The notes beneath the pieces were generated by a model that worked only from the letters and a program-made list of their open reading frames with translations, was not told the origin of the DNA and searched no databases. 64,000 bases of DNA, taken from positions 1,482 through 65,481 of the forward strand of contig JARQZL010000016.1 of NCBI GenBank assembly GCA_029984855.1, read 5' to 3'. The DNA is from Archaeoglobales archaeon (GTDB lineage: Archaea; Halobacteriota; Archaeoglobi; Archaeoglobales; Archaeoglobaceae). Positions 1,389 to 64,000 of the stretch are shown here, piece after piece. Both the position numbers and the translations under genes were made by a program. The stretch's first letter is position 1. Every line of letters begins with the position of its first letter.

Positions 1389-2458
1389 AAGCTGCTCTTG
1401 CAATCGAAGACGGAACTTTTGTAGAAGGCTTCGGATTTGGAAGTGAGGGGATTGCAGAAGGAGAGCTCGTTTTCAATACATCCATGACGGGCTACGTTGA
1501 AGCTTTGACGGATCCAAGCTATGCTGGTCAGATTCTCATGATGACCTATCCCCTCATAGGCAACTACGGCGTTTGCAGAGATGATTTTGAAAGCGAGGGA
1601 GTTAAAGTTGAGGGTTTTGTCGTGAGAGAGCTTTGTAAAAAACCCAGTAACTGGAGAAGTCAGCTTAGTGTTGATGAATTGCTCAAAGAGTACGGAGTTC
1701 CAGGCATCGAAAGCATCGATACGAGGATGCTGACGAAGAAGACGAGGATATATGGAGCTATGAAAGCCGTTCTTGCAGTTGGCGATTACGACAGGGATGA
1801 ACTTCTTAAAAAGGCTGTGGAGCAGCCCTCCATTACTGAACTCGATCTCGTCGGCAGGGTTTGCGTAAAAGAACCGGTACGTATGGAGGCGAAGGGCAAG
1901 TATGAAGTTGTACTGGTTGACTGCGGGATTAAGCTGAGCATAGCGAGGCAGATGATTAAGAGAGGAATCAACGTTACTCTTGTTCCCTATAACTATCCTG
2001 CCAGAGAAATCCTCGAAATTGATCCAGATGGTGTTTTCATATCCAATGGCCCCGGTGATCCGGCAAGAGTTAAGCAAACAATCGAGACGATAAGGAAGCT
2101 TGCAGGAAAGCTGCCAATGGCCGGAATATGCCTTGGCCATCAGCTTATTGGCCTGGCTATGGGAGCAAAGACGTTCAAGCTCAAATTTGGTCATAGAGGG
2201 GCTAATCAGCCCGTTAAGGACTTTGAAACAGGCAGAGTGTTCATCTCAAGCCAGAATCACGGCTTTGCAGTAGACGATAAGACTCTACCTCCAGATATGG
2301 AAGTCACTCAGATAAACCTGAACGATCACACTGTTGAAGGCTTAAGGCACAAAGACTATCCGCTGATATGCGTTCAGTATCATCCAGAAGCGTCTCCAGG
2401 CCCCCATGACACGTACTTCTTCTTCGACAGCTTTGTAGAAATGCTTGCAGAGTATTAG
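1385..2458 (+). CDS. carA: Carbamoyl-phosphate synthase small (glutaminase) subunit
   Basis: 357 aa. It has the class-I amidotransferase triad region GICLGHQL...HGFAV...QYHPEA and a typical CarA N-domain. Confidence 0.95.
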
Positions 2459-2466
2459 GTGGAAAG

Positions 2467-5400
2467 ATGCCTAAGCGTGAAGACATCAAAAAGATCATGG
2501 TCGTAGGTTCAGGGCCGATAGTGATTGGGCAGGCAGCCGAGTTCGATTATTCAGGCAGCCAGGCATGCAAGGCTTTGCGTGAGGAGGGATACGAGGTAGT
2601 ACTTGTAAACTCAAATCCAGCCACAATAATGACCGACCCGGGGATGGCCGATAAGACGTATATAGAACCACTGACTGCAGATGTGGTTGCGAGGATTGTT
2701 GAGAGAGAGATGCCAGATGCTCTGCTTCCAACTCTCGGTGGTCAAACAGCATTGAATATCGCAGTTCAGCTTGGCGAAATGGGAATCCTTGACAAATACG
2801 GAGTTGAGCTCATAGGTGCAAAGCTCGATGCAATAAAGAAGGCCGAGGACAGAGAACTATTCAAAGAGTGCATGCACCGCATTGGCCTTGAGGTTCCGGG
2901 GAGTGATATCGCCAGTGATGTGAGTGAAGCTTTGGCGATTGCGGAAGAAATAGGTTATCCTGTGGTTGTGAGGCCTGCCTTCACTCTTGGTGGAACTGGA
3001 GGGGGTATAGCGTATAATCGCGAGGAACTGAGGGAAATAGCAGCTCACGGCCTTGAAATGTCGATGATAAACCAGGTACTCATCGAAGAGGGCGTAATTG
3101 GGTGGAAAGAGTTTGAACTCGAGGTAATGAGGGATTTAGCAGACAACGTTGTGATAATATGCTCAATCGAGAATTTCGACCCTATGGGTGTGCACACTGG
3201 AGATAGCATAACCGTCGCTCCAGCCCAAACTCTTAGCGATGTAGAATACCAGCGTTTGAGGGATGCATCGATAGCCATAATAAGGGAAATAGGAGTTGAG
3301 ACTGGAGGGAGCAACATACAGTTTGCTGTCCATCCCACAACTGATCGCATCGTTGCGATAGAGATGAATCCCCGTGTAAGTCGTTCTTCAGCCTTAGCCT
3401 CAAAAGCAACAGGCTTTCCCATTGCGAAAATAGCTGCGAAGCTTGCAGTTGGATACACGCTCGATGAAATTCCCAACGATATAACGAAGGAAACACCTGC
3501 GAGCTTTGAACCGACAATAGACTATGTGGTTGTCAAAGTTCCCCGCTTTGCCTTTGACAAATTCCCAATGGCAGATGCAGTTCTCGGCAGTCAGATGAAG
3601 AGTGTTGGAGAGGTAATGGCCATCGGCAGAACATTCGAAGAAGCGTTGCAGAAGGCGTTGAGAAGCCTTGAAATCGGCCGCTATGGTATTGGGAGCGATG
3701 GAAAGGATAAGGATGAAACGATGGAGGAGATACTGAACAAACTTCGATACCCAAATGCTGAAAGAGTTTTTTACATCAGGTATGCCCTGCAAAATGGCTT
3801 CAGCGTTGAGGAGATTTATGAACTAACAAGAATAGACCCCTGGTTCATTGATAAGATTAAGAACATCGTCGAGATGGAGAAAGAGCTGAAGGAGCTCGCT
3901 GCCAAGCATTCAATTGATGAAGTGCCCGATGAGGTATTGCGTAAGGCAAAGAAGCTTGGCTTCTCTGATGTGCAGCTTGCGAAAATATTTGGAGTTAGAG
4001 AAGAGGAAATCCGGAAGAGAAGAAAGAAATCGGGAATAACTGCGGTCTTCAAGATGGTGGATACGTGTGCTGCTGAATTTGAGGCCAAAACACCTTACTA
4101 CTATTCAACGTATGAGGAAGAGAACGATGCGAGGCCAACCGATAGACCGAAAGTAATGATTCTTGGTGGCGGGCCAAACCGCATAGGTCAGGGTATAGAA
4201 TTCGATTACTGCTGTTGTCATGCAGTCTTCAGCCTTGCAGAGGATGGATACGAGACTATAATGGTTAATAATAACCCTGAGACTGTTTCAACGGACTACG
4301 ACACCTCCGATAGACTTTACTTCGAGCCGATAACGCATGAAGATGTGATGAACATATACGAGAACGAAAAGCCTGTGGGCGTGATAGTCCAGTTTGGAGG
4401 GCAGACACCGCTCAACATATCGAGGCAGCTTGAAAGCAGCGGGGCAAGAATTCTTGGAACTTCTGTCGATTCCATAGATATAGCAGAAGATAGAGAGAGG
4501 TTTGCAGAACTCTGCAGAAAGCTCAGCATTCCGCAGCCAGAGAACGGCATAGCCTACAGCATAGAGGAGGCAAAGGAGATTGCAGCAAAAATAGGTTACC
4601 CCGTTCTTGTTCGCCCATCCTACGTTTTAGGCGGTAGGGCGATGGAGATAGTCTACGATGTTGAAACTCTGGAAAGGTACATTACCGAGGCTCTTGAGGT
4701 CAGTCCGGAGAAACCGATACTGATAGACAAGTTTCTTGAGGATGCAATCGAGGTTGAAGTTGACGCCTTGTGCGATTGTGAAGATGTTGTCATAGGCGGA
4801 ATAATGGAGCATATAGAAGAGGCGGGGGTGCACAGTGGAGATTCCGCATGTGTCCTTCCACCAGTTTCTCTCTCTCAGGACATCATCGATACCATAGAGG
4901 ACTACACGAGGAGGATGGCAATTGAACTGAAGGTTGTTGGTCTGATAAATATCCAGTATGCTGTCAAGGACAGTACAGTTTACGTGCTGGAAGCAAATCC
5001 GAGGGCGAGCAGAACTGTCCCGTATATAAGCAAGGCTACCGGATTACCTCTGGCAAAAATAGCTGCAAAGCTTATGATGGGCAAAAAACTGAGAGAGCTG
5101 GGCGTTAAGGAGGTGAAGCCCAAACATGTTGCAGTAAAAGAGGCGGTATTCCCGTTCATCAAGCTGCCCGGCGTCGATCCCGTTCTTGGCCCGGAAATGA
5201 AGTCAACGGGAGAGGTTATGGGTATTGACTACGATTTTGGTGTTGCTTACTACAAGGCGGAACTTGCTGCTGGCATGCGTTTGCCAACTAATGGGACAGT
5301 GTTTATAAGCGTGAGGAAGGCAGATAGAGAGAAAGTTTTGCCTGTGGCCAGAAAGCTGTACGAACTCGGTTTTAAGATAACTGCAACGGACGGAACTGCC

Positions 5401-5697
5401 CGATTCTTGAACTCCAATGGCATTCCTGCAGGGGTAATATACAAGGTCAGTCAGGGCAGACCCAACATAGTTGATGCGATAATAAACAGGCAGGTTGATC
5501 TGATAATAAATACACCTACGGGGAAAAAAGGAAAAACTGAGGGCTACATGATAAGAAGGACAGCAGTTGACCACAACGTGCCCTACATTACCACAGTTTC
5601 CGGGGCTATAGCTGCAGTTAGAGGGATAGAGGCGATAAAAAAGGCGAAGATGACGATAAAATCGATTCAGGAGTACCATGAAGAAGCGAGAAATTGA
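2467..5697 (+). CDS. carB: Carbamoyl-phosphate synthase large subunit
   Basis: 1076 aa with duplicated ATP-grasp halves ([21 protein letters not shown] / [20 protein letters not shown]) and a C-terminal MGS-like domain. Confidence 0.97.
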
Positions 5698-6361
5698 ATT
5701 TGCAAACATTGACCACGAGAGGCTTTGCAGGGCTGGAAAGCCGGAAGCTGTATTTGCGGAGTTCAAAGAACCGAAGGAGGTTGTGGAGATTGCCCATGAG
5801 TACGTTGACAGATGTGGAGAGGTTCTGATTACGAGGGCAAATGAAGAGCAAATAGAGGCATTACTTGAGGAGTTCAGGAGTTTTAGTGTTAGAATCAACA
5901 GAAAGGCGAGGACTGTGGTTATCAGGAGAGAGGAGGCTGAAAGGCAGAAAGCAGGAAAGGTGGCAATACTGACGGCAGGAACTTCAGACATTCCAGTTGC
6001 AGAAGAAGCAGCAGAAACTGCGGAATTCCTCGGAATGGATGTGATGAAGTTCTACGATGTTGGAGTTGCTGGCATCCACAGGTTGCTTGATCCGATCAAG
6101 AGAATCAGGGAGGAAGAAGTGGATGCTGCGATAGTGGTTGCAGGGATGGAGGGAGCTTTACCATCTGTTGTTGCTGGACTCACTGACAGGCCCGTGATTG
6201 CAGTCCCAACCTCAGTTGGTTATGGCGTGAACTTAGGAGGTTTAACAACTCTGTTTGCCATGCTCCAGAGCTGCTCTTCGGGCGTTGCAGTGGTAAACAT
6301 CGATAATGGGTTTGGTGCTGCAGTTTTTGCCCATCTTATTGCGAGGGTTGCGAGGTTATAA
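5678..6361 (+). CDS. larB: LarB-type PurE-like carboxylase/hydrolase (pyridinium-3,5-biscarboxylic acid mononucleotide synthase)
   Basis: 227 aa. [15 protein letters not shown]...[11 protein letters not shown]...[16 protein letters not shown]...PTSVGYG...[11 protein letters not shown] is the LarB/NCAIR-mutase-related signature. It overlaps the carB end by 20 nt. Confidence 0.8.
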
Positions 6362-9982: not shown

Positions 9983-11905
9983 CTACCTGAGCTTCACTGC
10001 ATCGTCAGGGCAGATTTTACTGCAAACGTTTCCTCTGAGCCAGCAAATTTCATCCTGACAGAGCTTTATTGCTTTCTCCGGGCAGATTCTGCTACACACT
10101 CCACATCCAACGCAGAGGTTCTCATCAATTGCAACTTTTCCCTCTCGGAAGCAGATTGCAGGACAGAAAAATGAGTTGATGCATTCCATACAGAGCGTGC
10201 AGTTTTTTGTAACCGTGAATTTGGGTGTCTTCTTTCCCCCCTTCTTTCTCTCTCTCTGCAACAGCAGAGCGCATTTCTGTCTTGAAATAACAACTGCAAC
10301 ACCCTTGTACTCTATTGCCCTTTTTATGGCGTCAATTGTCCTTCTCAAGTTGTAGGGATTCACAACTTCGACAAAATCGATACCCATCCCTCTTACGACA
10401 TTCTCGATACTCACAGCTTTTCCTTTTTCACCGCAACCTCTCTCTCCTACACCGGGATGTGGCTGATGCCCTGTCATACCGGTGGTGGAGTTATCAAGGA
10501 TGACAAGAACGAAATTATGGTTGTTGTAAACCGCATTAACAAGAGCAGGCAGTCCTGCATGGAAGAACGTGGAGTCACCTATTGTAGCGATTACCGGCTC
10601 CTTAACAACATAGCTCAGCCCGCATGCAATGCCGGTGCTTGCCCCCATGCACACGCAGGTGTCAACACCCTCAAAAGGTTTGTTTGCTCCAAGAGTGTAG
10701 CATCCTATATCTCCCGGCAGTGCTGCAAGCTTAACAGCCTTTTTTATCGCATAGAAAGTCGCTGCGTGCGGACAGCCGGGACAGAAGACCGGTGGGCGAG
10801 GTGGTGCGAGTATGGCGAGTTCTCTCCCTTTTTCAAGAATTGCTTCATAATCTATACTCGGTTTAATTCCGAGAGTCCTTGCCAAACCTCTCTCAACAAC
10901 AGCCACGTTATATTCATAGCTCATTGGAAGAAAGCCATTCAGCTTACCGTAAACCTCCACCCCTGTAAGAGCTCTCACATGGAGCTCGATAAATGGATCA
11001 ACCTCTTCAACAACGAGTATGTGTTTGAGCTGAGATGCAAACTCCTCTATCAGCTCCTCAGGAACAGGATGCATGGATGAAAGTTTCAGCACAGGTATTT
11101 CCACACCAAGCCTCTCCATTGCCTCCTTAGCATAAGCGTAGCTCAGCCCGCATGCAATGATACCGGTATCGCCTTCTCCATCTTCTATCCAGTTTCCGTC
11201 CCATCTTGAAAGATAATTTCCTGCTTTTTCCATTTTCTCTACAAGTTCTGACTTCATTTTTCTGGCATGAGCCGGTAGAATAACATCTCTGGCAGGGTTT
11301 TTCTGCCATTCAACTTTTTCAAAAGCCTTTTTTTGAAGAGGAGCAAGCTCAACAATACCGCTTGCGTGGCTCAGCCTCGTATATGTTCTGAGCATTACGG
11401 GAATATTAAAATGCTCTGATAATTCGAAACAGAACTTGACAAAATCCTTCGCCTCCTGAACGCTCGACGGCTCTATTACAGGTATATTTGCAGCCCTACC
11501 GTACCATCTGTTATCCTGCTCGTTCTGGCTGCTGTGCATTGACGGATCGTCTGCAGAAACAAGGACAAAACCCCCCCTTGCCCCGATGTATGCAAAGCTG
11601 AATAGAACATCACTTGCAACATTAACGCCAACGTGTTTCATCGCTGCCATGCTACGCTTTCCAGCAAGCGATGCAGCCATGGCAACCTCTACGGCAACTT
11701 TTTCATTTGAGGAGTACTCCATTACAAAGTCGAACCTTCCCTTCAACGTCTCGCATGCTCTGCTGAGGGTATCACCAATCTCAGATGAGGGCGTACCCGG
11801 GTATGTGGCGAAAACGTCAATTCCTGCTTCAAGTGCTCCTCTCGCTATAGCCTCATTTCCGAGAAGAAATGCTTTCCCTGACTCCTTTAGAACATCATTG
11901 AGCAT
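9983..11905 (-). CDS. iorA: Indolepyruvate:ferredoxin oxidoreductase alpha subunit
   Basis: 640 aa with an N-terminal pyrimidine-binding domain, a TPP-binding GDSTFFH..., and C-terminal CxxCxxCxxxCP ferredoxin motifs (CVGCGVCSRICP). Confidence 0.9.
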   Translation of the reverse strand: MLNDVLKESGKAFLLGNEAIARGALEAGIDVFATYPGTPSSEIGDTLSRACETLKGRFDFVMEYSSNEKVAVEVAMAASLAGKRSMAAMKHVGVNVASDVLFSFAYIGARGGFVLVSADDPSMHSSQNEQDNRWYGRAANIPVIEPSSVQEAKDFVKFCFELSEHFNIPVMLRTYTRLSHASGIVELAPLQKKAFEKVEWQKNPARDVILPAHARKMKSELVEKMEKAGNYLSRWDGNWIEDGEGDTGIIACGLSYAYAKEAMERLGVEIPVLKLSSMHPVPEELIEEFASQLKHILVVEEVDPFIELHVRALTGVEVYGKLNGFLPMSYEYNVAVVERGLARTLGIKPSIDYEAILEKGRELAILAPPRPPVFCPGCPHAATFYAIKKAVKLAALPGDIGCYTLGANKPFEGVDTCVCMGASTGIACGLSYVVKEPVIATIGDSTFFHAGLPALVNAVYNNHNFVLVILDNSTTGMTGHQPHPGVGERGCGEKGKAVSIENVVRGMGIDFVEVVNPYNLRRTIDAIKRAIEYKGVAVVISRQKCALLLQRERKKGGKKTPKFTVTKNCTLCMECINSFFCPAICFREGKVAIDENLCVGCGVCSRICPEKAIKLCQDEICWLRGNVCSKICPDDAVKLR

Positions 11906-11980
11906 GGGGTGAAATTATCCTGGCTTTTTAAAATTCTTGCTGTTTCAGAAAACCTTAAGTTCTACCAAACAACTTCTGGC

Positions 11981-12424
11981 ATGATGTACAGGAACACTTA
12001 CCTCGAAAAGGTTGGAGAACTGATGAAGTACTGTATGGATCTTGCAAAGACAGTTGATGAGGCGATGGACGATATAAAGAGAGCTTCAAGTGATTTGAGG
12101 GATCCTGAACGTATTGCAGAACTGTTCCGGATAGACAGCGAGTACATTGTTCAGGTTTTCATGTCCGGTGGAATGAGTGAAGATGAAGCGAAAGAGAGCC
12201 TGAAGAGATTAAAGCAGTATGCTGTTGCCCAGCTTCAGAAGCACTACAATCTTGTTGCCCAGCTTTTAAAAGACACCGAGAAGAAGGTCATTGAAACAAT
12301 AGAGAACACAATAAAGGAAATAGAGTTTGAAATGCCGGATCAGACGAAAAAAGAGATAAAATACAGTATAGATAAAGCAGAGGAGGATGTAGAAATACTC
12401 TCAAAGGAGATGACCAACCTCTGA
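11981..12424 (+). CDS. Hypothetical helical protein
   Basis: ORF 11909-12424. The first ATG pair at 11981 lies about 47 nt downstream of TTTTTAAAA (11926-11934). No recognisable motif. Confidence 0.4.
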   Translation: MMYRNTYLEKVGELMKYCMDLAKTVDEAMDDIKRASSDLRDPERIAELFRIDSEYIVQVFMSGGMSEDEAKESLKRLKQYAVAQLQKHYNLVAQLLKDTEKKVIETIENTIKEIEFEMPDQTKKEIKYSIDKAEEDVEILSKEMTNL

Positions 12425-12505
12425 GCGATTCTAATATTATCCCAGTGTTTTATCCTCCGGGACTGACGAAAAAAGGTATATTGGTTTTGCATAGTATGCC
12501 CTGTC

Positions 12506-13792
12506 TCAACCTCGCGGCCTCAGACCTTCAATTAGATCACTAACTGTGCTTTCCACCCTGTCAACAACCTTCTCCTCATCTATTGTGAGAACATTGCGAT
12601 CATCCATTATCAATTCCCCATCAACAATCACATGTGTAACCTCACACCCGTAGCCTGCGTAGACAATGCTGTAAAGAGGATTGTAGAGCGGGAGATAGTT
12701 GAAACTCTTCGCATCGAGCAGAATGATGTCTGCCAGCATACCCTCTTTAAGCTCTCCGCCCTCAATCCCGTAGGCCACATACCCGTTTCTTGTTGCCATC
12801 TTAAGAACATCAGCAGCTTTGAGGGCATCAGCCCTTGTCGTGGCAACCTTCTGGAGTAAAGAGGCGAGTTTTATCTCCTCAAACATGTTGTAGGTGTTGT
12901 TGCTGGCAGCACCGTCCGTTCCAAGGCACACGTTCACTCCTGCCCTCAGCATTTCACGCACTCTTGCTATCCCTGATGCAAGCTTTAGGTTACTCACAGG
13001 ATTGTGGACTACACTCACACCGCGCTTTTTCAAAATCCTGATCTCTTCATTTTCAACCCAGACGGCGTGAGCAATAATTACCCTCTTCGAGAGGAAACCC
13101 ATATCATCGAGGAATTTTACGGGAGTTTTTCCGTACTTCTGTTTTATCTCCTCAAATTCGTGTTTTGTTTCCGCAACGTGGATGTGGATAAGAGTATCAA
13201 GCTCTTCAGCTCTCTCTTTAACTTTCATGAGAAAACCCGGAGAACATGTGTACGGGGCATGGGGGCCAAATACAGCTTTTATTCTTCCACTAAAAGCTCC
13301 ATCCCACTCCTTTATGAATTCTGTTCCTGTTTCGAGCTCATTTCTCCCCTTCTCCTCATCACCTTTTTCAATCATCCCGTAGCTCAGCACAGCCCTCATC
13401 CCCGACTCACCCACTGCCCTTGCAACCTCATCCATGTGGAAGTACATGTCGGAAAAAGCGGTGGTGCCTGTCTTGATCATCTCAAGAATCCCAAGTATCG
13501 AGCCCCAGTAGATATCCTTTGGTGTAAGCCTCGCCTCAATTTCCCAAACCCTTCTGAGCCACTCCATCAGGGGCATATCTTCAACGTATCCCCTCAGAAC
13601 TGTCATCGCAAGATGAGTGTGGGCATTGAACAGGCCGGGTACTACAAGTTTTTTATCAGCCATTATCTCAACTTCACCCCTGATATCCTCCCTGCCAACG
13701 TATGCTATTCTGTTACCCTGAATGCCGATATTTGCTCTGGTAAACTCATCACCAACTAAGCAGAGCCCCCCTTTTATGGATATGTCGTACAT
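12506..13792 (-). CDS. mtaD: 5'-methylthioadenosine/S-adenosylhomocysteine deaminase (amidohydrolase superfamily)
   Basis: 428 aa. PGLFNAHTHLAMT...MEWL...HVAET...GTDGAASNN is the MtaD/TRZ-ATZ pattern. Confidence 0.85.
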   Translation of the reverse strand: MYDISIKGGLCLVGDEFTRANIGIQGNRIAYVGREDIRGEVEIMADKKLVVPGLFNAHTHLAMTVLRGYVEDMPLMEWLRRVWEIEARLTPKDIYWGSILGILEMIKTGTTAFSDMYFHMDEVARAVGESGMRAVLSYGMIEKGDEEKGRNELETGTEFIKEWDGAFSGRIKAVFGPHAPYTCSPGFLMKVKERAEELDTLIHIHVAETKHEFEEIKQKYGKTPVKFLDDMGFLSKRVIIAHAVWVENEEIRILKKRGVSVVHNPVSNLKLASGIARVREMLRAGVNVCLGTDGAASNNTYNMFEEIKLASLLQKVATTRADALKAADVLKMATRNGYVAYGIEGGELKEGMLADIILLDAKSFNYLPLYNPLYSIVYAGYGCEVTHVIVDGELIMDDRNVLTIDEEKVVDRVESTVSDLIEGLRPRG

Positions 13793-56053: not shown

Positions 56054-56157
56054 CCATCTTCACTGTCTGTCAACATTTATTAACCCTTCATTGAACCAAT
56101 TCGGCAGATTTAAATTTCGAATGTGATTTGAAATTATTAATCATTAGGGGTGTTCGG

Positions 56158-56574
56158 ATGAAAGTTGTTGCATTCCTGTGCAGATGGTGTGCATATGCTG
56201 GAGCTGACACGGCTGGAGTTGGTAGAATGAAATATCCAGCGAATCTGAGGCCGATAAAAGTAATGTGCTCGGGAAGGGTCGATCCGATCCACGTGCTGTA
56301 TGCCTTGAGGAAGGGAGCAAGCTGCGTTCTCGTTGCCGGCTGCCATCCTGGTGATTGCCACTATGTTAAGGGCAACATTCAGATGAGCAGGAGGATGTTT
56401 CTGCTGAAGAATCTCATTGAATTCCTCGGTATAGAGCCTGAAAGGATTCAGGTGGAGTACATATCTGCGGGGGAGGCAAAGAAGTTCTCGGAAGTCGCAA
56501 GGAGAGTTGTTGAGAATGCTGCTGGCATGGATGGAAGCAGATTGAAGGCAGAGTGGGAGGAAGACCATGAATGA
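56158..56574 (+). CDS. mvhD: MvhD-type (methyl-viologen-reducing hydrogenase delta-like) [2Fe-2S] protein
   Basis: VVAFLCRWCAYAGADTAG...MCSGRVDP...VAGCHPGDCHY. The ATG at 56158 lies about 40 nt downstream of TTTAAATTT. Confidence 0.85.
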   Translation: MKVVAFLCRWCAYAGADTAGVGRMKYPANLRPIKVMCSGRVDPIHVLYALRKGASCVLVAGCHPGDCHYVKGNIQMSRRMFLLKNLIEFLGIEPERIQVEYISAGEAKKFSEVARRVVENAAGMDGSRLKAEWEEDHE

Positions 56575-57466
56575 AGTAAGTCTTGAAAATGTCGATTTAA
56601 TTTTAGGGTGGCAGAAGGGAGAGCTCGTGGCAAAACCCTTTATTGCGAAAAACGAAGAGGATATACCAAAACTGATAGCCGATTTTACATGTTCAATAAA
56701 CCTCGTCAGGTTTCTGCACGACCTCGAATTTGATGGAAAGGCAGGCATATTTGTAAAGGGGTGTGATGCGAGAAGCCTTGAAATGCTGATAAAAGAGGGG
56801 AAAGTTGATAGAGACAGGCTGCACATCATAGGGGTGCCCTGCAGGGGAGTGGTTGATGCGAAAAAGGCCATGCGAATTATTGAAATGGAGGGATTGAAAA
56901 GCCCCATCAGTGTTACGGATGAGGGGGATTTCACTCTCACCGATGGAAATAAGACGGTAAGGGTGAAAAGAGAAGAGCTTCTCGCCTCGTGCTGCCTTAC
57001 ATGCAGAAGCCCCACACCTCAAATCTATGATACTCTGATTGGAGAGCCTGTTGAAGGAAGTAAGGATGAATTTAAAGATGTAGAAGAAATTGAAAGTCTC
57101 AGCCTTCAGGAGCGGTGGGAATTCTGGAGTGACACACTATCACGATGCATTCGCTGCTATGCATGCAGAGAGGTTTGCCCAATGTGCTACTGCAAGGAAT
57201 GCCTTGTTGACCCTACAAACGTGGTTGTGACACCCAAAACAACGGCATATGAAAAAGCCAACAGGCCTGTATGGATTTCAAAGGCATCGCAACTTCAGGA
57301 AAACATGATATACCATCTAATACGGGCAATGCATCTGGCGGGAAGGTGTGCTGATTGCGGGGAGTGTGAGAGAGCATGCCCGATGGAGATACCGGTCAGG
57401 CTGCTCATGAGAAAGGCTGAGAAAGACCTGCGGGAGATTGAAGCGAGGCTCGCTGCGATGGGGTGA
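56567..57466 (+). CDS. Fe-S protein with two 4Fe-4S motifs (FlxC-like)
   Basis: 299 aa. CIRCYACREVCPMCYC and CADCGECERACP. It overlaps the mvhD stop by 8 nt. Confidence 0.6.
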   Translation: MNEVSLENVDLILGWQKGELVAKPFIAKNEEDIPKLIADFTCSINLVRFLHDLEFDGKAGIFVKGCDARSLEMLIKEGKVDRDRLHIIGVPCRGVVDAKKAMRIIEMEGLKSPISVTDEGDFTLTDGNKTVRVKREELLASCCLTCRSPTPQIYDTLIGEPVEGSKDEFKDVEEIESLSLQERWEFWSDTLSRCIRCYACREVCPMCYCKECLVDPTNVVVTPKTTAYEKANRPVWISKASQLQENMIYHLIRAMHLAGRCADCGECERACPMEIPVRLLMRKAEKDLREIEARLAAMG

Positions 57467-57470
57467 TTGG

Positions 57471-58388
57471 ATGGAGTTTCTGTGCAGTGAAGAGGATATA
57501 GTCAACTGGCTCGCCTCAAAGCTTGAGGAATACGCTGTTTACATCCCCTCTGAATACGGTTTTGAAAGAGCATCCTCATCTGATGAGCTAAAGCTGAACT
57601 TTCCACTTCCGGCAATCTCCATAAAGAGTCTGTTTTTTCCCCACTCTGATGTACTGATGAGGTTCAGAGGGAAAGAGATTGTGGAAGCTCTGCCGGATGA
57701 AGAGAAAAAGATTGTTCTCACAAAAGCCTGCGATGCCAATTCTCTGAAAGTCCTTGACGCAGTCTTCCTTTCTGAGCCCGTCGACCCGTACTATGAGAGG
57801 AGAAGGAAGAATACAGTAATTGTAACAGTCGAGTGCGAACAGATGTGCTATGGTGGCTTTTGTAAGGATATCGGTATTGAACCTGAAGGGGATGTTGTAA
57901 TCAGGCGGAGAGGGAAAAGTTATTGCGTTGAGGTCAGAAATAGCGAACTCCTTCCGGAGTTTGAGAAGTTCGAAGCATGCGATGAAGGGGCTGAAGAAAC
58001 GGCCAAAGGAACAAAGGAGAATTTGCTGAATATAGAGTGGCTCGAAGACGCCTTTGAGAGCGAGGTGTGGGATGAAGTCTCGAGGTTCTGTATTTCCTGC
58101 GGTGTATGCACTTATTTGTGTCCTACGTGCCACTGCTTTGACATAACGGATAGCGGGAGAGTGAGGATAAGGACTTGGGACTCCTGCCAGTTCCCATACT
58201 TCACCATGCACACCTCAGGCTACAATCCGAGGCCTGAGAAAAAGCACAGGCTGAGGAACAGAATTTACCACAAGTTTTCCTATTTCCCTCAACGCTATGG
58301 CATTGTTGCCTGTGTGGGTTGTGGGAGATGCGTGAGGATGTGCCCGTCGCGTATAGATATCAGAGAGCTTGTGCTCAGGAGGGATTGA
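57471..58388 (+). CDS. Fe-S protein of the AsrA / sulfhydrogenase-beta (HydB) / FlxB type
   Basis: CISCGVCTYLCPTCHC and CVGCGRCVRMCP. The ATG at 57471 is 4 nt after the upstream stop. Confidence 0.65.
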   Translation: MEFLCSEEDIVNWLASKLEEYAVYIPSEYGFERASSSDELKLNFPLPAISIKSLFFPHSDVLMRFRGKEIVEALPDEEKKIVLTKACDANSLKVLDAVFLSEPVDPYYERRRKNTVIVTVECEQMCYGGFCKDIGIEPEGDVVIRRRGKSYCVEVRNSELLPEFEKFEACDEGAEETAKGTKENLLNIEWLEDAFESEVWDEVSRFCISCGVCTYLCPTCHCFDITDSGRVRIRTWDSCQFPYFTMHTSGYNPRPEKKHRLRNRIYHKFSYFPQRYGIVACVGCGRCVRMCPSRIDIRELVLRRD

Positions 58389-58389
58389 G

Positions 58390-59244
58390 ATGAACCCCTA
58401 TCTTCCGAAGCCAGCGGTGATAAAGGAGATACACCGGGAAGTGGAAGGGGAGAGGGCCATAAAGACATTCAGGATAAGACCAATTGATGGAAATTTCGAT
58501 TTCACGCCAGGTCAGACTGCAATGGTCTCCGTTTTCGGCAAGGGGGAAAGCATGTTTGCAATATCCGCCTATCCAGATATCGAATTCACCGTTATGAGGG
58601 TTGGAAGGGTTACTTCAGCTCTGCATCAAATGAAGAAGGGGGACACCGTTGGCATCCGGGGACCACTCGGCAACGGCTTCCCTGTTAAGGAATGGGAAGG
58701 TAAAAACATCCTCCTGATTGGCGGTGGCGTTGGTATGGCTCCTCTTCGCTCAGTTCTTCATTACATTCTGGACAACAGAGATAAATACGGTGGACTGACA
58801 GTGATGTGTGGCGCAAGGACTTCTAAGGATATTATTTACAGAGATGAGCTCGAAAAGCTGATGGATGGAGAAGACGTCTGGCTCTCTGTGGACAATGAGG
58901 AGGAGGGATGGTTCAAGCTGAACTGGGATAAGCCGGAAGAAAGCCAGATTCCTGATGGCACAAGAAAGCTTGTGGGCTTCGTTCCAATGGTTGTTGCAGC
59001 CGTAAAACCATCCCCTGAGAACTGCATAGCCGTAACGTGCGGCCCGCCGGTAATGATAAAGTTCGTGGTTCAGAACCTGCTGAAGCTTGGTTTTAAGGAG
59101 GAGCAGATATACACAACACTCGAGAACAAGATGAAGTGCGGGATTGGTAAGTGCGGGAGATGCAATATAGGCAGCGTTTACGTATGTAAGGATGGGCCGG
59201 TTTTCAGATACGATTTTATAAAGAAATTACCTCCGGACTTCTGA
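58390..59244 (+). CDS. FAD/NAD(P)-binding + [2Fe-2S] oxidoreductase of the AsrB / HydG / PyrK / FlxA type
   Basis: GQTAMVSVFG...RVGRVTS...LLIGGGVGMAPLRS, and C-terminal CGIGKCGRCNIG...VCKDGPVF. Confidence 0.75.
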   Translation: MNPYLPKPAVIKEIHREVEGERAIKTFRIRPIDGNFDFTPGQTAMVSVFGKGESMFAISAYPDIEFTVMRVGRVTSALHQMKKGDTVGIRGPLGNGFPVKEWEGKNILLIGGGVGMAPLRSVLHYILDNRDKYGGLTVMCGARTSKDIIYRDELEKLMDGEDVWLSVDNEEEGWFKLNWDKPEESQIPDGTRKLVGFVPMVVAAVKPSPENCIAVTCGPPVMIKFVVQNLLKLGFKEEQIYTTLENKMKCGIGKCGRCNIGSVYVCKDGPVFRYDFIKKLPPDF

Positions 59245-59346
59245 TTTATTTTATTTCTGCCATATTTGTGAGCTGTATACTCATTCATATTTGTAATTCT
59301 GTATACTCATTCAGGATACACATGTGGGTAGCTTTAAGAACTATTT

Positions 59347-60111
59347 TTAAGAACTATTGAACTCCAGATCGAGAAGAGAGGGGTTGTTTACTGCAGCTAT
59401 CTTGGCTCTTCCCTCTCCAAGCGATAAATACCGTTCAACTTCTATTCTTCCACCTTTCGAGCTCTCCCCGACCCACTCCCCAGCCTCTCTGGCAATAATC
59501 TCTCCCCCCTCCATGCCGAAGCCCAGAGCATTGCCAGCTTTTTCAACCACTATTTTACCCCCTTTCATTTCCATCCCCACCCAGTCACCTGCCTCTTTTA
59601 CAAATATTTTGCCACCTTTCATACCCCTGCCGAGATAGTTCCCGGTTGATGGCGTTATAATTTCACCGTCCTCCATCTCCATACCGAGATATGTCGTTCT
59701 GCCTTCAACGTAGAGCTTACCTCCTCTCATCCTGAAACCTATTCCCGAAGCGGGATGGGCTTTGAGCCTGATGGAAAAGTCCTCCATATTTCTGAGAAAT
59801 CCGGAGATGAAAAAGCCCACAATTCCACCGTAGTGTGAGAGTACATCGTTGAACAGAACCTCAACCTTCTGAGGTGAGAGAGGATACTGGGATGCAAGCC
59901 TTCTTCCCAGCCTGAATACCCCTTCAAAAACTTCATATCTCCAGCCCTGCTTGCCCATAGCCCACTCAACGTAGGATTGAACGATATCCTCCAGAACATC
60001 AGATGAAGCGAAGCGGGTATATCTGCTGAATGTCTGGTGCTCTTCCGACACTCTAAGGCCACTTGCAAGTCTGGAGATTATTCTATCTCTTTCCATCCTC
60101 CCTCTTTCCAT
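59347..60111 (-). CDS. GXGXG beta-helix protein 2 (helical N-domain + FwdC/GltB3-type repeats)
   Basis: 254 aa. GIGFRMRGGKLYVEG...LGRGMKGGKIFVKEAGDWVGMEMKGGKIVVEKAGNALGFGMEGGEIIAREAG. It overlaps the upstream paralogue by 34 nt. Confidence 0.7.
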   Translation of the reverse strand: MERGRMERDRIISRLASGLRVSEEHQTFSRYTRFASSDVLEDIVQSYVEWAMGKQGWRYEVFEGVFRLGRRLASQYPLSPQKVEVLFNDVLSHYGGIVGFFISGFLRNMEDFSIRLKAHPASGIGFRMRGGKLYVEGRTTYLGMEMEDGEIITPSTGNYLGRGMKGGKIFVKEAGDWVGMEMKGGKIVVEKAGNALGFGMEGGEIIAREAGEWVGESSKGGRIEVERYLSLGEGRAKIAAVNNPSLLDLEFNSS

Positions 60112-60860
60112 AGAAAAATCTTTCCCCCTTCTCTCTGCCCGAAAGAGGACACTCTGCCCTTGATTTTGATTGTGCCCCCCTTCATGCCAATTCCAACGTA
60201 CTGCCCGGCATTTCCGAAAACTATAATCTTTCCACTTTCCATTGAATCTCCAAGGCGCCAGCTAACATTGCCTCTGATGAGTATCTCTCCCCCTTTCATT
60301 CCTTTACCGACTTCATCGCCTGTATAGCCTGTTACGACAATTCGGCCATCTTCCATTTCTTCTCCAAGATGGCCACCTGCATACCCTTCTATAGTGAGGT
60401 TACCACCTGGATGCCTGAAGCCAAAACCCCAGCAGAAGCCAACTCTGGTGCTGACAAGCATTCCCGGAACTTTTGGTGTAAGGGTCAGGACTTTATCTTT
60501 TATAATATCGTGGTACAGGCCGGAGACAAAATACCCCAGGTAGCTGTCATACAGCGGATGACAGAGCAGTCCTCTGATTTCTCCCGACCTCTTTTTGAGA
60601 ACTTCGTAGGCTACGTTGTTAACTGTCTCTTCAACCTCTTTCAGGGTCATGGAGTACTTCCTTCTCATCTTTCTTCCGAAATTAAAGCACTTCTCGGGAT
60701 TGAGCTGGAATGCCAGGTTCAGCTCCATATCCAGATATTCTGTTACAAGATCCACGAATCTCTGAGTATCGTGGCTATCTTGGACTTCTACAGGTTTTCC
60801 TTCAGGAATGCTGAGATCCTTGGCAAGTCTATCAATTATCCTCATGTGCCTCTCCTCCAC
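60078..60860 (-). CDS. GXGXG beta-helix protein 1 (helical N-domain + FwdC/GltB3-type repeats)
   Basis: 260 aa. GHLGEEMEDGRIVVTGYTGDEVGKGMKGGEILIRGN...GNAGQYVGIGMKGGTIKIKG. The alternative ATG at 60845 forms an ATGA overlap with the VWA stop. Confidence 0.7.
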   Translation of the reverse strand: MEERHMRIIDRLAKDLSIPEGKPVEVQDSHDTQRFVDLVTEYLDMELNLAFQLNPEKCFNFGRKMRRKYSMTLKEVEETVNNVAYEVLKKRSGEIRGLLCHPLYDSYLGYFVSGLYHDIIKDKVLTLTPKVPGMLVSTRVGFCWGFGFRHPGGNLTIEGYAGGHLGEEMEDGRIVVTGYTGDEVGKGMKGGEILIRGNVSWRLGDSMESGKIIVFGNAGQYVGIGMKGGTIKIKGRVSSFGQREGGKIFLWKEGGWKEIE

Positions 60861-62257
60861 CTTATGACTATCCCGGGTATATCTTTTTCGTCCTCAACTT
60901 CGTAGAAGTTTGTCGCTACTTCTTTTAGCCTCTTACCCCTTTTTACAAAATCTTTAACATCCTTTGCGTACTCGTTTATCCAGATGACTGTGAGATTGAG
61001 AGAAGATAACTCCTTTACAGCCTCTTCAATATTTTCTATACCTGCATCGGTTATAAGTATGAAATCGAATTTACTGCAGCCGTACCTTTCAATGTAACTC
61101 TTCAATCTGTCTGCATTGAGTCGTGTTCCACCGCCTTGGTAGATGGCAAGAGTCTCGTACACTTCTCTCCCCCTGCAAGGCGGTAGCTCCAAGTTTCTAC
61201 CTGAAAAGTTCACAACTCCAACTTTCCCGCCAATATCCATGTAGCTTCTGGCAACTGCAAATGCCCCAAGGACAGCATAAGAGCACTTTTTTGGATCTTT
61301 CATACTTCCTGAAGAATCTATTACTATAACAGCGTTTCTTGCTTCGCTGCTAACACCGTAGAATTCCTCAGCACTGTACTTCTTTGCAATTCCGGGTATC
61401 ACCCTGCCATAACTCTCCACAGGGCTGTAAAATTCTACTGAGTCGTCGAGAGAAAAATCCACGAGCTCATTAGGGTAAAGAGAGCCAGTTTTTTCAGATG
61501 ATTCGATGTAAACAACGTATCTTGAAGCTCGATGAATATACCAGTCCACATCAGCTTTCCTCTGTTCCCCCTGCTCGCCAGAAATTCCCAGAAACTTCGA
61601 AATTTCCTCAAACTCCTTCAGGTCAACTTCTCTTGCAATTTCGGCCATTGCCCTTTCCACATCCTCTTTTGAGAAATCTCCAAGTTCCGGATTCTCAAAG
61701 GGCAGGGATATTTCGAGGTCGTGAACAAGCTCAGAAAACTTCAGCAGGTTGGACTTCAGTCTCTTTCTGTCGAGGAAGTCTATTTTCAAGAGGGATTCCA
61801 GTCTTTTCTCCAGCTTCTCATCAAGCTCAGTTCTTCCAAAGTCGATGCCTGTAATACGAGAGAAGTAAGCTCTGATCAACGCATCACCCTCGCTTCTGAC
61901 TGGCAGTTCTCTGTACATCTCCGCAACTGCATCAAGCCCCCTGTTAACTACCAAGTCTAAATTTACAACGACGTCATCGAACAGCTCCCGAATTGCGTTT
62001 CCGTTTTCATAGTCTCTCAGCCAGAAAGATTCCAAGATTACTGTTTTCAAGTCGTAAGGATGTCTTGCCCAGTGATTCAGTGCATGATGAAAAGCACCAA
62101 GCAAGCCTTCTCTGCTCAGCATCTTTAAAAGTTCTCGTCCGGCAACAATCCTGTGCCTTCTTGAAAGCTCCAGTCTGCATTCTGCCCCGTTAATAATCTT
62201 GAGGTCAATTGGAGGGTAATAAAGATCACTTCTTGCCCTCTCAAAAACTTCCCTCAT
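60842..62257 (-). CDS. VWA/MIDAS-domain protein with a long helical N-terminal region
   Basis: 471 aa. MIDAS VIVIDSSGSM...QGGGTRL...LITDAGI in the last 190 aa or so. The N-region carries FHHALNHWARHPYD. Confidence 0.8.
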   Translation of the reverse strand: MREVFERARSDLYYPPIDLKIINGAECRLELSRRHRIVAGRELLKMLSREGLLGAFHHALNHWARHPYDLKTVILESFWLRDYENGNAIRELFDDVVVNLDLVVNRGLDAVAEMYRELPVRSEGDALIRAYFSRITGIDFGRTELDEKLEKRLESLLKIDFLDRKRLKSNLLKFSELVHDLEISLPFENPELGDFSKEDVERAMAEIAREVDLKEFEEISKFLGISGEQGEQRKADVDWYIHRASRYVVYIESSEKTGSLYPNELVDFSLDDSVEFYSPVESYGRVIPGIAKKYSAEEFYGVSSEARNAVIVIDSSGSMKDPKKCSYAVLGAFAVARSYMDIGGKVGVVNFSGRNLELPPCRGREVYETLAIYQGGGTRLNADRLKSYIERYGCSKFDFILITDAGIENIEEAVKELSSLNLTVIWINEYAKDVKDFVKRGKRLKEVATNFYEVEDEKDIPGIVIRWRRGT

Positions 62258-62258
62258 A

Positions 62259-63545
62259 TCAGCTCCTCAGAAGGCTTGTAAAGAAAGGATGGCCTATTTT
62301 TTCGGCCATCTGCTCCATTTTTTCCAGATCTCCTTCTTTGAGAGCCTTATATGCTACTATCTGATAGTTTCTGTGCTCCTCCCATCTCCTCATTGCCTTT
62401 GCAATTGCGTCTTTCACAGCATGAAATTCATCGCTGGTATCCTTCTCTACATCTCTGACCTCGGCGAGCTTTGCATCGCTAACCCCGCCTCGGTGCCAGA
62501 GTGCATATGGAAGTACCGCCATTACGTGTGAAAGTGAGACGTCTCCTCCTTCAAACCAGGCCAGAGCTTTGGAATATATAAAAACACTTCTTTCAGCTCT
62601 GTTAGATATACTGTAGATGTCCGAACAGATATAGCCGGCGTAATGGCATCCATCGCACCTGGCGAAGTCCTTTCTGCCGAGCTGGCAGTAAGCCTCTTGG
62701 GACAGGTAGTCCAGAAAGAGCTCGACATCATCTGAAACGTCTATTTTTTCAATTTCTTTTCTCATTTTTCTCATTTCATTCCATGTGGGGATCTCCAGCT
62801 TTATCCCCTCTTTTTTGAGCCTCTCCATTATTTTTTCTCTGAAGTCTGAAGATACCTCTTTCACATACTTTTCAGCCTCTTTTCCGTTAAGTTCATGAAT
62901 ATGAGCAATCATCTCCTCAGTGAGCCTTGCGTCTCTCAAAAAGCCATCGTTGACACCTCTTCTGATAAATCTTTTCCTGACAGGGTGAATTCTTCCAGTT
63001 TCAACCGCAATGTCGAAGCGGTCGAGCAGAGGAGGTATCAACTTGGTTGTGCCAGTATCCTGGTAGTTTATCGTGGCAAAAAATGCTTTGTTGGTGGTAA
63101 TCAGCGTGGAGCCACGGTAGCTCCATATACTTCTGTCCACCTCGTTCAGCAGCATGCTCTGCTTGCCAGGAGGCAGTCTGTTTATTTCATCTATTATTAT
63201 CGCAGGACAGAACGGGGTGATTTTCCATCTAACAACTTCTTTCCCCCCTTTTTCAAGAGCAGCAAGGTCAAGAGTAGCCTTTATTTTCTCCTCCGTCTGC
63301 TCCGGATGGCCGTGGATTGTTGCGGCCTGAACGAATTCGAGAGGAACTGCTTTTACAAGACTGGCAATACGCTCACTCGAAGTGGTCTTTCCACTCCCGT
63401 ATTCTCCAAATATAAGCTCTTTTCCGTCAAGGATGAGAGTGAGTATTCCGAAGAGTACCAAGGGATCGTATTTCTCTCTATTAACCTCCAGCCTTTCGTC
63501 CCCATAGTATAACCTTGTGCATATCAGATCGTATAGTCGCTTCAT
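62259..63545 (-). CDS. MoxR-class AAA+ ATPase with an extended Cys-containing C-terminal region
   Basis: 428 aa. Walker A GEYGSGKTT (res 47-55), Walker B AIIIDEINR (115-123), FFATINYQD, PPLLDRFD, and C287-x9-C297-x2-C300-x6-C307. Confidence 0.85.
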   Translation of the reverse strand: MKRLYDLICTRLYYGDERLEVNREKYDPLVLFGILTLILDGKELIFGEYGSGKTTSSERIASLVKAVPLEFVQAATIHGHPEQTEEKIKATLDLAALEKGGKEVVRWKITPFCPAIIIDEINRLPPGKQSMLLNEVDRSIWSYRGSTLITTNKAFFATINYQDTGTTKLIPPLLDRFDIAVETGRIHPVRKRFIRRGVNDGFLRDARLTEEMIAHIHELNGKEAEKYVKEVSSDFREKIMERLKKEGIKLEIPTWNEMRKMRKEIEKIDVSDDVELFLDYLSQEAYCQLGRKDFARCDGCHYAGYICSDIYSISNRAERSVFIYSKALAWFEGGDVSLSHVMAVLPYALWHRGGVSDAKLAEVRDVEKDTSDEFHAVKDAIAKAMRRWEEHRNYQIVAYKALKEGDLEKMEQMAEKIGHPFFTSLLRS

Positions 63546-63573
63546 CTGAGAATCTCTGAAAAGGATGTAGATA

Positions 63574-63605
63574 TTGATTACGATTGAAGTTGATTACGAT
63601 TGAAA
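63574..63605. repeat. 16-bp tandem direct repeat TTGATTACGATTGAAG/TTGATTACGATTGAAA, 29-60 nt upstream of the ATPase start codon
   Basis: Read directly. It lies between an oligo-T/A TATA-like stretch (about 63607-63640) and the ATG at 63545 on the minus strand. Confidence 0.8.
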
Positions 63606-63679
63606 TGGGATAAAAAATTGAGATAAATAGATAAAGATAAGGATAATAGCAATGTGGATGAATCCCTGCTGTTTTTAAT

Positions 63680-64000
63680 GGTGGTGTCAAAATAAGAAAA
63701 AATAAATAACCAAGATACAACTTATGCAACCCCCACTCAAGCAATTGGTAGACTACGTTAAGTCTACAAAAGTCTTTCGGAGGAACAAGAAAGATGTGGA
63801 ACTAAAGATATTAGCGGCTCTATTATACTTCTTTGGTCTCTCTTTAAGGAAAACGAGCGATTTCCTTTCTCTTTTTGAAGAAATAAGTCACGAATCAGTC
63901 AGAATATACTACCACAGACTCAAAACAGTCTTAAAGCCTCCTAAAAAGAAGAAAAGAAGGTTAATAGCGATAGATGAAACAAAGATAAAACTGGAAAGGA
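63680..64000 (+). mobile_element. Left end of an IS6-family-like insertion sequence (continues past the right edge)
   Basis: The candidate terminal repeat GGTGGTGTCAAAATAAG at 63680-63696 resembles the GG-N2-TGT-N-CAAA ends of IS6/IS26-type elements. The transposase ORF starts 28 nt after the end of this repeat. Confidence 0.5.
63724..64000 (+). CDS. IS6-family-like transposase, N-terminal 92 codons (open at the window edge)
   Basis: Hand translation gives MQPPLKQLVDYVKSTKVFRRNKKDVELKILAALLYFFGLSLRKTSDFLSLFEEISHESVRIYYHRLKTVLKPPKKKKRRLIAIDETKIKLER. This shows an HTH region followed by the first catalytic Asp context (AIDETKIK) typical of archaeal IS6 transposases. Confidence 0.65.
   Translation, partial: MQPPLKQLVDYVKSTKVFRRNKKDVELKILAALLYFFGLSLRKTSDFLSLFEEISHESVRIYYHRLKTVLKPPKKKKRRLIAIDETKIKLER

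Follow-up and report, generated by a model that had tools for sequence, protein, structure and literature searches.

Pairs of a MoxR-type AAA+ ATPase and a von Willebrand factor A (VWA) protein form a large class of chaperones, most of which are orphans, and the few clients known are Rubisco, NO reductase, CO dehydrogenase and respiratory complexes. In the RavA/ViaA/LdcI system, the MoxR ATPase and its VWA cofactor are joined by a third, structural partner that is not the client, and the target is encoded elsewhere. The vWA-MoxR ternary conflict systems, which are enriched in multicellular bacteria, have VMAP, iSTAND, FtsH or a beta-propeller as third component, and the paper describing them makes no mention of GXGXG or of a beta-helix (Kaur et al. 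2020, PMC7159879). Here we analysed a stretch of 64,000 nucleotides from an Archaeoglobales archaeon (contig JARQZL010000016.1; hereafter the window), in which four tightly packed, translationally coupled open reading frames (ORFs) occupy 59347-63545 on the minus strand. The analysis confirms that they form an operon, which encodes a MoxR-class ATPase, a VWA protein bearing a metal ion-dependent adhesion site (MIDAS) and two paralogous GXGXG proteins, GX1 and GX2. The arrangement is not due to chance, as it was found again in dozens of genomes.

The order and spacing of the genes had been proposed in a sequence-only reading of the window, and the junctions read as it claimed: the ATPase and VWA genes meet at TGAtATG with a 1-nt gap at 62258, the VWA and GX1 genes share an ATGA at 60845-60842, and the GX1 and GX2 ORFs overlap by 34 nt. 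The motifs that it had listed for the ATPase and the VWA protein were likewise present, including the CX9CX2CX6C cluster of the former and the complete MIDAS and the HHALNHWARHP segment of the latter. The GX1 ORF as listed spans 60078-60860, with a GTG at 60860 as alternative start; the gene most likely begins at the ATG at 60845, and the corresponding NCBI protein (P0211) is also 255 aa long. GX2 probably starts at its second ATG, at 60096, which fits the orthologue of Archaeoglobus veneficus in the alignment and would cut the GX1/GX2 overlap to 19 nt.

To define the conserved unit, one genome per GTDB species was scanned, which yielded 344 loci encoding a relative of the ATPase; 80 of these were retrieved, and the gene content of 83 related loci was compared by iterative hidden Markov model searches of their ORFs. 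The ATPase, the VWA protein and a GX protein occurred together in about 68 of the 83 loci, in Archaeoglobales, Nitrospirota, Thermodesulfobacteriota, Methanocellales, Latescibacterota and other lineages of two domains of life. Two clades were distinguished. Clade A has the order ATPase-VWA-GX, shows 55-83% ATPase identity and comprises Archaeoglobales, Nitrospirota/Thermodesulfovibrionales, Syntrophia, Desulfobacteria and Desulfofervidus; clade B has the order ATPase-GX-VWA, shows 34-40% ATPase identity and comprises Thermodesulfobacteriota, Methanocellales, Latescibacterota, Hydrothermarchaeota and Woesearchaeota. The genes are linked in two different orders, and selection therefore seems to act on the linkage itself. 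No fourth conserved gene emerged from all-against-all clustering of the ORFs of the 83 loci together with the adjacent same-strand ORFs. Neighbours were shared within lineages only (Lon in 8 loci, radical SAM in 3, a lipoprotein in 8), and the Pfam-annotated neighbourhoods were ordinary and mutually unrelated, with ribosomal, biosynthetic and transport genes. As judged by gene content, the conserved unit is thus a self-contained core of three genes rather than four: of the four-gene linkage proposed earlier, the triad recurs widely, and the twin GX genes are a feature of Archaeoglobales.

The triad appears to be undescribed. No curated family covers it in scans of Pfam and NCBIfam, and literature searches returned no relevant paper that links GXGXG with MoxR, vWA or AAA+ proteins. 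Source databases give its members generic names ('AAA family ATPase', 'VWA domain-containing protein' and 'GltB/FmdC/FwdC-like GXGXG domain-containing protein'). By analogy with the characterised pairs, we lean towards reading it as a self-contained remodelling machine of the MoxR-VWA kind, with the beta-helix protein as its dedicated adaptor or client. NorQ/NorD and CbbQ/CbbO have the same adjacent AAA+ and VWA genes with intact ATPase motifs and MIDAS, and the VWA fold of the window protein matches NorD in the cryo-electron microscopy structures of NorQD. Their genes, however, adjoin those of their clients (nor, cbb) and lack a beta-helix subunit, whereas the window ATPase has a helical insert and a Cys4-His site and the window VWA protein a zincin-like N-domain; the kinship in sequence is remote. 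RavA/ViaA/LdcI resembles the triad in combining an ATPase, a VWA protein and a third partner with a target encoded elsewhere. In that system the third partner is a decameric enzyme, to which RavA binds by its LARA domain, in contrast to the small, operon-encoded beta-helix protein with an N-terminal tag found here, and no sequence kinship extends beyond the AAA+ and VWA classes.

The ATPase of the window carries the motifs GEYGSGKTT, IIIDEINR, ATINY and LLDRFD, and its Walker A and B motifs, sensor-1, arginine finger and sensor-2 are intact (G47-x2-G50-x-G52-K53-T54, D119-E120, N160, R176 and R316, respectively); the Walker motifs, N160, R176 and R316 were unchanged in all 80 full-length homologues. 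The protein passes the Pfam models AAA (29.6 bits) and AAA_5 (27.8 bits, cut-off 22) and fails AAA_3 (17.6 bits, cut-off 27) and AAA_lid_2 (12.9 bits, cut-off 22.7). A family profile built from 19 homologues found MoxR (2R44, E 3.6e-11) and ChlI/BchI (4e-9 to 4e-8) as its sole solved relatives in the PDB. Hundreds of homologues bear no specific name, with about 60% identity in archaea and bacteria alike. Two features stand out, an inserted helical region of about 100 aa and a cysteine cluster (C287-x9-C297-x2-C300-x6-C307) that directly precedes the lid domain and, with H301, makes up a Cys4-His site that is unchanged in all 80 homologues; this site may bind Zn or an iron-sulfur cluster. Equivalog and profile scans placed the ATPase/VWA pair outside the characterised MoxR/VWA families, as had been supposed. 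The ATPase clearly belongs to the MoxR/chelatase class and appears to fit no characterised subfamily.

The nearness of ChlI and BchI raises the alternative that the triad inserts a metal cofactor into, or matures, a metalloenzyme of anaerobes that is encoded elsewhere, much as NorQD, CoxDE or the chelatases do; the metal would be carried or sensed by the Cys4-His site of the ATPase or by a His/His/His-Cys site in the VWA N-domain, and GX would dock on the target enzyme. The invariance of the Cys4-His site fits this proposal, as does the persistence of an H-x3-H-x3-(H/C)-P pattern in the VWA N-domain even where the catalytic Glu is lost, and the GX fold is common to beta-helices (FwdC and GltS) that bind catalytic subunits. 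All 80 retrieved loci moreover carry the titles of lineages known as strict anaerobes, which is compatible with an oxygen-sensitive cofactor and proves nothing. The triad also shares with BchI/BchD/BchH and CobS/CobT/CobN the logic of an AAA+ protein, a VWA-MIDAS protein and a third subunit, and CobT-like phage proteins are among the fold matches of the window VWA protein. Nevertheless, neither a candidate target nor a BchH/CobN-type large subunit is linked to the genes in any locus, the GX proteins lack conserved ligand-binding residues, and the ATPase reaches only 14.3 bits against the BchI equivalog TIGR02030 (cut-off 466.95). The module is also present in Woesearchaeota, whose metabolic repertoires are very small, and the first His of the putative metal site is missing in four Archaeoglobus loci. 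We therefore regard cofactor insertion as unlikely, although it deserves to be kept in mind.

The VWA protein of the window contains DSSGS, GGGT and TDAG, and the MIDAS residues D314, S316, S318, T378 and D404 are conserved; DSSGSM, GGGT and TD were invariant across 68 VWA homologues. Its AlphaFold2 model (predicted local distance difference test score, pLDDT, 84) consists of a mixed N-domain (residues 1-245), a linker hairpin (about 260-298) and a VWA fold from about residue 305, which is C-terminal and without a variable effector tail. For this C-terminal part, Foldseek returned many VWA domains at probability 1.0, including the MDN1 MIDAS and NorD in NorQD. The window protein scores 18.2 bits against Pfam VWA_2 (cut-off 27), a model that matches all 35 family members, and a full-length profile of the VWA protein had no match in the PDB. 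The region in front of the MIDAS had been described as helical; the MIDAS does lie behind it, but the region is a mixed domain that is better read as degenerate and zincin-like. In the model, three strands are followed by a helix bearing H-[E/A/G/Q]-x-x-H-x3-[H/C]-P-[YWF]-D, which in the window reads H58-A59-L-N-H62-x3-H66-P67, with Ala at the catalytic Glu position. The HExxH motif is intact in most VWA proteins of clade A and of Methanocellales; the Glu is replaced by Ala in the window and its closest relatives and by Gly in most Thermodesulfobacteriota. A profile of nine diverse N-domains had its best PDB match in MJ1213, the minigluzincin selecase, aligned over a strand and the HExxH helix (E 0.011, borderline). 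N-domains scanned alone against Pfam gave sub-threshold matches only, with Peptidase_M48 at E 0.026-0.044. The N-domain thus looks like a degenerate, zincin-derived domain.

The same order of two domains is known from proteins with DUF2201_N and DUF2201, a putative metallopeptidase followed by a VWA-like domain, which are common in phages and have MoxR-like ATPase partners. DUF2201 matched 5 of the 35 VWA family members below threshold (E about 5e-3), HExxH is degenerate in many triad members including that of the window, and we know of no GX partner of DUF2201 proteins. The top fold matches of the window VWA protein in BFVD were phage two-domain 'metallopeptidase', 'VWA-like' and CobT-like proteins, at TM-scores of only 0.2-0.35. 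Such matches, the intact HExxH of many members, the likeness to MJ1213 and Peptidase_M48, and the conserved N-terminal peptide of the GX proteins described below could together indicate a processing system, in which the VWA N-domain is an active minigluzincin that cleaves this peptide, or that of a client bound to GX, while the ATPase feeds or releases the substrate. We consider this improbable: the forms without the catalytic Glu, including that of the window, and those of the four Archaeoglobus loci that have lost the first His of the motif are still under purifying selection, and all of the homology scores are sub-threshold.

GX1 and GX2 are 32% identical, in agreement with the earlier description of them as paralogous GXGXG beta-helix proteins, and GX1 passes the Pfam GXGXG model (PF01493; 36.8 bits, cut-off 32.5), with GX2 just below it (31.6 bits). 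In its AlphaFold2 model (pLDDT 84), GX1 starts with a floppy helix; a helical domain extends to about residue 120, and the beta-helix after it has 6-7 rungs that repeat every 19 residues. Foldseek matched the model to the C-terminal domain of glutamate synthase (GltS), FwdC and FhcC at probability 1.0, over the beta-helix part only; the helical N-domain was without a match in the fold comparison. In an alignment of 68 GX proteins, the conserved columns were the Gly, Met and Ile positions of the rungs, G109 and S113, and a GxF(V/I)SG motif, with no conserved His, Cys or Asp. This pattern suggests that GX is a structural, non-enzymatic beta-helix protein.

The beta-helix of GX is the same right-handed one as in FwdC, FhcC and the glutamate synthase C-terminal domain, with the same G-x-x-G-x-x-M-x-G-G-x-I repeat, which leads to the question of whether the GX genes are ordinary FwdC or GltB3 subunits whose partners lie elsewhere, with the ATPase and VWA genes merely adjacent. 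The NCBIfam models of FwdC are indeed the best named matches of the GX proteins, and some homologues have been labelled 'formylmethanofuran dehydrogenase subunit C' or 'glutamate synthase' by their sources. The matches nevertheless fall far below the cut-offs, at 76.7 and 57.2 bits for TIGR03122 (cut-off 130.65) and 69 and 44.6 bits for NF042910 (cut-off 340), and the match to the glutamate synthase large subunit amounts to 12.7 bits only. The likeness is confined to the beta-helix; the rest of GX consists of an N-terminal tag and a helical N-domain, about 120 aa long, that differs from theirs. In about 68 loci GX is linked to the ATPase and VWA genes and never to fwd, fhc or glt genes, and neither the flanks of the window nor those of the 83 related loci contain gltB1, gltB2, fwdA, fwdB or fwdD, which bears out what had been noted for the window. 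That the GX genes are ordinary subunits of these enzymes is therefore very improbable.

Each third-component ORF starts with a short conserved N-terminal peptide. It is MRIIDRLAKDL in GX1, RII.RL being the Archaeoglobales type, and (I/L)K.LLEKNP in the GX proteins of bacterial clade A; in clade B, all 22 GX ORFs picked up by the N-terminal motif scan begin with MKNPFEEF. The motifs are essentially confined to third-component ORFs, with the two loosest patterns also matching a few unrelated ORFs. In one Woesearchaeota locus (L058), three small ORFs that encode no beta-helix all start with M.YFDKF. Because the peptide persists in ORFs whose beta-helix has degenerated or is missing, it is this N-terminal tag, rather than the beta-helix, that appears to be the constant feature of the third component. 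In two Woesearchaeota loci the third component is multiplied. L058 carries, at 2198-5908, one 221-aa and at least two 154-aa ORFs with the M.YFDKF tag, and L047 carries, at 11335-13168, three degenerate GX paralogues, with no VWA gene detected.

GX2 represents the type nearest to the single bacterial GX, and the bacterial proteins mostly score slightly higher to GX2 than to GX1, which is a paralogue type specific to Archaeoglobales and has inserts. Both types are present in the window, A. veneficus (L001), L086/L087, L006 and L013. The closest relative in the genome collection (L004) has GX2 only; it lacks exactly the GX1 interval (60849-60095 in the window) and has the same downstream gene. 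L007 and L023 have the GX1 type only. The twin genes are a duplication specific to the Archaeoglobales lineage, and one that is not essential to the system, since L004, L007 and L023 have one GX type each. In a wider search, the GX profile matched 4431 proteins (E 1e-3 or better) among 1.84 billion cluster representatives, many of them 300-620 aa long. Ten long matches were checked for informative fusion partners and held GXGXG repeats only. This suggests that free-standing GXGXG beta-helix proteins without an assigned role are numerous.

The surroundings of the operon bear on its mobility. On the plus strand, the N-terminal part of an IS6-family transposase (NF033587, E 1.6e-9) starts at 63724 and continues past the edge of the window; only one end of the insertion sequence (IS) is visible, as the window stops at 64000. 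L086 runs collinear with the window in two segments, 63588-59356 (84% identity) and 59244-55044 (80%). Upstream of the operon, L086 has a tRNA-Val gene (anticodon TAC, 193-265) where the window has the IS6-like element, which suggests an integration-prone site; downstream of GX2, it has an extra 2.2 kb with a helix-turn-helix gene, a gene for a 394-aa membrane protein and a TnpB-like zinc-finger remnant. By blastn break-points, L004, L086 and A. veneficus cease to match the window at about 63586-63588, just past a leader that is conserved in aligned upstream regions of the window, L004 and A. veneficus; this leader (63546-63588) may serve as promoter. The ratios of nonsynonymous to synonymous substitution rates (dN/dS) between the window and L086 were 0.048 for the ATPase, 0.067 for the VWA protein, 0.062 for GX1 and 0.166 for GX2, compared with 0.10-0.13 for five flanking genes with similar dS. 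The four genes are under strong purifying selection. The possibility that the operon is IS6 cargo was rejected, because it is collinear, together with its downstream neighbours, in L004 and L086, neither of which has the IS, and its dS equals that of the flanks. Hence, of the earlier suggestion of an accessory module beside an IS6-like element, the element is real, and the operon is not its cargo: it is a chromosomal module that is inherited stably, with mobile DNA gathering in its flanks.

These data also bear on the option of a conflict system, which the same reading had raised. As a vWA-MoxR ternary system for conflict or defence, the triad would be spread by horizontal transfer, with GX as sensor or effector. 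The triad has the same three-gene MoxR-vWA base and a patchy distribution over two domains of life, and the ATPases of Archaeoglobales and Nitrospirota are about 60% identical. Its flanks vary, from the IS6 element of the window and the tRNA-Val and TnpB remnant of L086 to Ku and ligase genes in Desulfofervidus, and both clades occur in one metagenome-assembled genome (MAG). However, the third component is not VMAP, iSTAND, FtsH or a beta-propeller, a variable effector tail is missing from the VWA protein, and the triad, found in anaerobic archaea and bacteria, shows neither effector or effector-associated domains nor architectural diversification. A PADLOC scan of all four proteins gave no match; tblastn found no ATPase relatives in PLSDB plasmids or INPHARED phages, and a scan of IMG/VR found none either. 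Together with the purifying selection and the ordinary neighbourhoods, these results count against the conflict option, to which we give little credence. By the comparisons made here, the triad falls outside FwdC, GltB3, the BchI/ChlI chelatases and the known vWA-MoxR conflict systems, and is a member of the broad MoxR-VWA kind.

If the triad is a remodelling machine of this kind, it would be a cytosolic machine of three components, in which the ATPase would assemble into a hexameric ring by analogy with NorQ/NorD, CbbQ/CbbO and RavA/ViaA. The VWA protein would dock on the ring or plug its pore, with the MIDAS gripping an acidic residue; a VWA finger that plugs a MoxR pore has been described (PMC9976466). 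ATP hydrolysis would then pull on or remodel the bound protein, either GX or an unlinked target bound to GX. As dedicated third subunit, GX would be recognised by its N-terminal peptide through the MIDAS or the zincin-derived cleft of the VWA protein, and would act, without being an enzyme, as adaptor or scaffold for a target encoded elsewhere, or would itself be the protein that is assembled or disassembled. Because the catalytic Glu is missing, the zincin-like site of the window protein would bind rather than cleave. GX1 and GX2 could be two alternative or hetero-oligomeric beta-helix subunits derived from the lineage-specific duplication. A more specific version, which we put forward tentatively, is that of an anaerobe-restricted machine of archaea and bacteria, with a redox- or metal-sensing Cys4-His ATPase and a zincin-derived, peptide-binding VWA protein, acting on tagged GXGXG proteins that are assembled, disassembled or delivered as a scaffold.

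Several points weigh against a remodelling machine with GX as dedicated subunit. A few variant loci lack GX or the VWA gene: L011, L022 and L046 have the order ATPase-lipoprotein-VWA, and L033, L036 and L041 have the ATPase and lipoprotein genes only, so that the ATPase can apparently work in other partnerships. No client gene is adjacent, unlike in the usual characterised MoxR/VWA pairs, so that the client would be GX itself or the product of an unlinked gene. The scores behind the zincin-derived nature of the VWA N-domain are borderline (E 0.011-0.04), and it is by analogy that we infer the roles of the GX N-terminal peptide, the MIDAS and the Cys4 site.

Additional observations were made on the variant loci and the neighbouring DNA (Table 1). 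The lipoprotein is predicted in a subset of Archaeoglobaceae, where its gene directly follows that of the ATPase and lies between the ATPase and VWA genes or takes the place of VWA and GX. It is 165-220 aa long, with a signal peptide, a Cys lipobox, many N-x-S/T sequons and a weak DUF4367 match; an exported lipoprotein as partner of a cytosolic AAA+ protein is unexplained. In eight clade-B Thermodesulfobacteriota loci (L049, L050, L053, L054, L061, L067, L069 and L071), a Lon gene lies directly 3' of the VWA gene on the same strand, which may reflect shared ancestry of the genomes or a link to proteolysis. The MAG of Deltaproteobacteria bacterium AUK038 carries a clade-A ATPase as well as a clade-B triad (L025 and L074); clades A and B thus cannot be plain orthologues, and their roles may differ.

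An exact 15-bp tandem direct repeat, TTGATTACGATTGAA, occurs in two copies 1 nt apart at 63574-63604, 28-58 nt upstream of the ATPase start. It straddles the end of homology (about 63586), one copy belonging to the conserved leader and the other being extra in the window genome; two or more matches were seen in only 1 of 100 shuffles. In the 100-nt convergent intergenic region 3' of GX2, an imperfect direct repeat of about 27 bp, GAATGAGTATACAG..ACAAATATG, occurs twice (59250-59345); the same region holds the repeat AGTTCTTAAA, and L086 carries its extra 2.2 kb at that junction. Beyond it, a convergent redox operon of four genes on the plus strand (56128-59244) encodes a FlpD/MvhD-like protein, an FrhB-like 4Fe-4S protein, a Fer4_22 protein and an NAD-binding protein with a DHOD-B-type Fe-S domain. 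In L086 this operon is conserved in synteny, and in L004 in part, through the first downstream oxidoreductase gene. FlpD-type genes are found downstream in A. veneficus as well as in the window and L086, and A. veneficus has an Mvh/Hdr-type hydrogenase cluster on the corresponding side. A hydrogenase/Hdr link to the triad was considered and rejected, as the FlpD-type genes are convergent, separate and absent from the bacterial loci; no link of the redox operon to the triad was found outside Archaeoglobales.

Table 1 Coordinates of the operon features in the window and of the lipoprotein ORFs in related loci
Feature	Location	Strand	Length	Basis
AAA+ ATPase, MoxR/chelatase class	Window 62259..63545	-	428 aa	Pfam, family profile, invariant residues
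VWA/MIDAS partner protein	Window 60842..62257	-	471 aa	AlphaFold2 model, Foldseek, invariant MIDAS
GX1, GXGXG beta-helix protein	Window 60078..60845	-	255 aa	Pfam GXGXG, AlphaFold2, Foldseek
GX2, second GXGXG beta-helix protein	Window 59347..60111	-	254 aa (249 aa from 60096)	Paralogy, Pfam near cut-off
Putative promoter-proximal leader, CGTAATCAATATCTACA ~20-40 nt before ATPase ATG	Window 63546..63588	-		Alignment with Archaeoglobales relatives
Predicted lipoprotein ORF	L011 2206-2709
Predicted lipoprotein ORF	L018 10386-10877
Predicted lipoprotein ORF	L022 1518-2021
Predicted lipoprotein ORF	L033 8099-8686
Predicted lipoprotein ORF	L036 11271-11798
Predicted lipoprotein ORF	L040 1312-1971
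Predicted lipoprotein ORF	L041 10875-11465
Predicted lipoprotein ORF	L046 5473-5976

The triad is widespread, uncharacterised and experimentally tractable. With it, the MoxR-VWA pairs gain an obligate third subunit, whose fold had been known solely as a structural domain of glutamate synthase and the Fwd/Fhc enzymes. A set of three proteins is small enough for reconstitution, and the N-terminal tag, the MIDAS and the Cys4-His site offer handles for mutation. If the machine does act on tagged GXGXG proteins, a GXGXG beta-helix that stands free of the glutamate synthase and Fwd/Fhc complexes would for the first time have a function. Should the target not be found, the triad is still a well-defined uncharacterised family that merits a Pfam or NCBIfam entry; if it is found, it could reveal a step of maturation or assembly common to sulfate reducers, syntrophs, Archaeoglobi and some methanogens.

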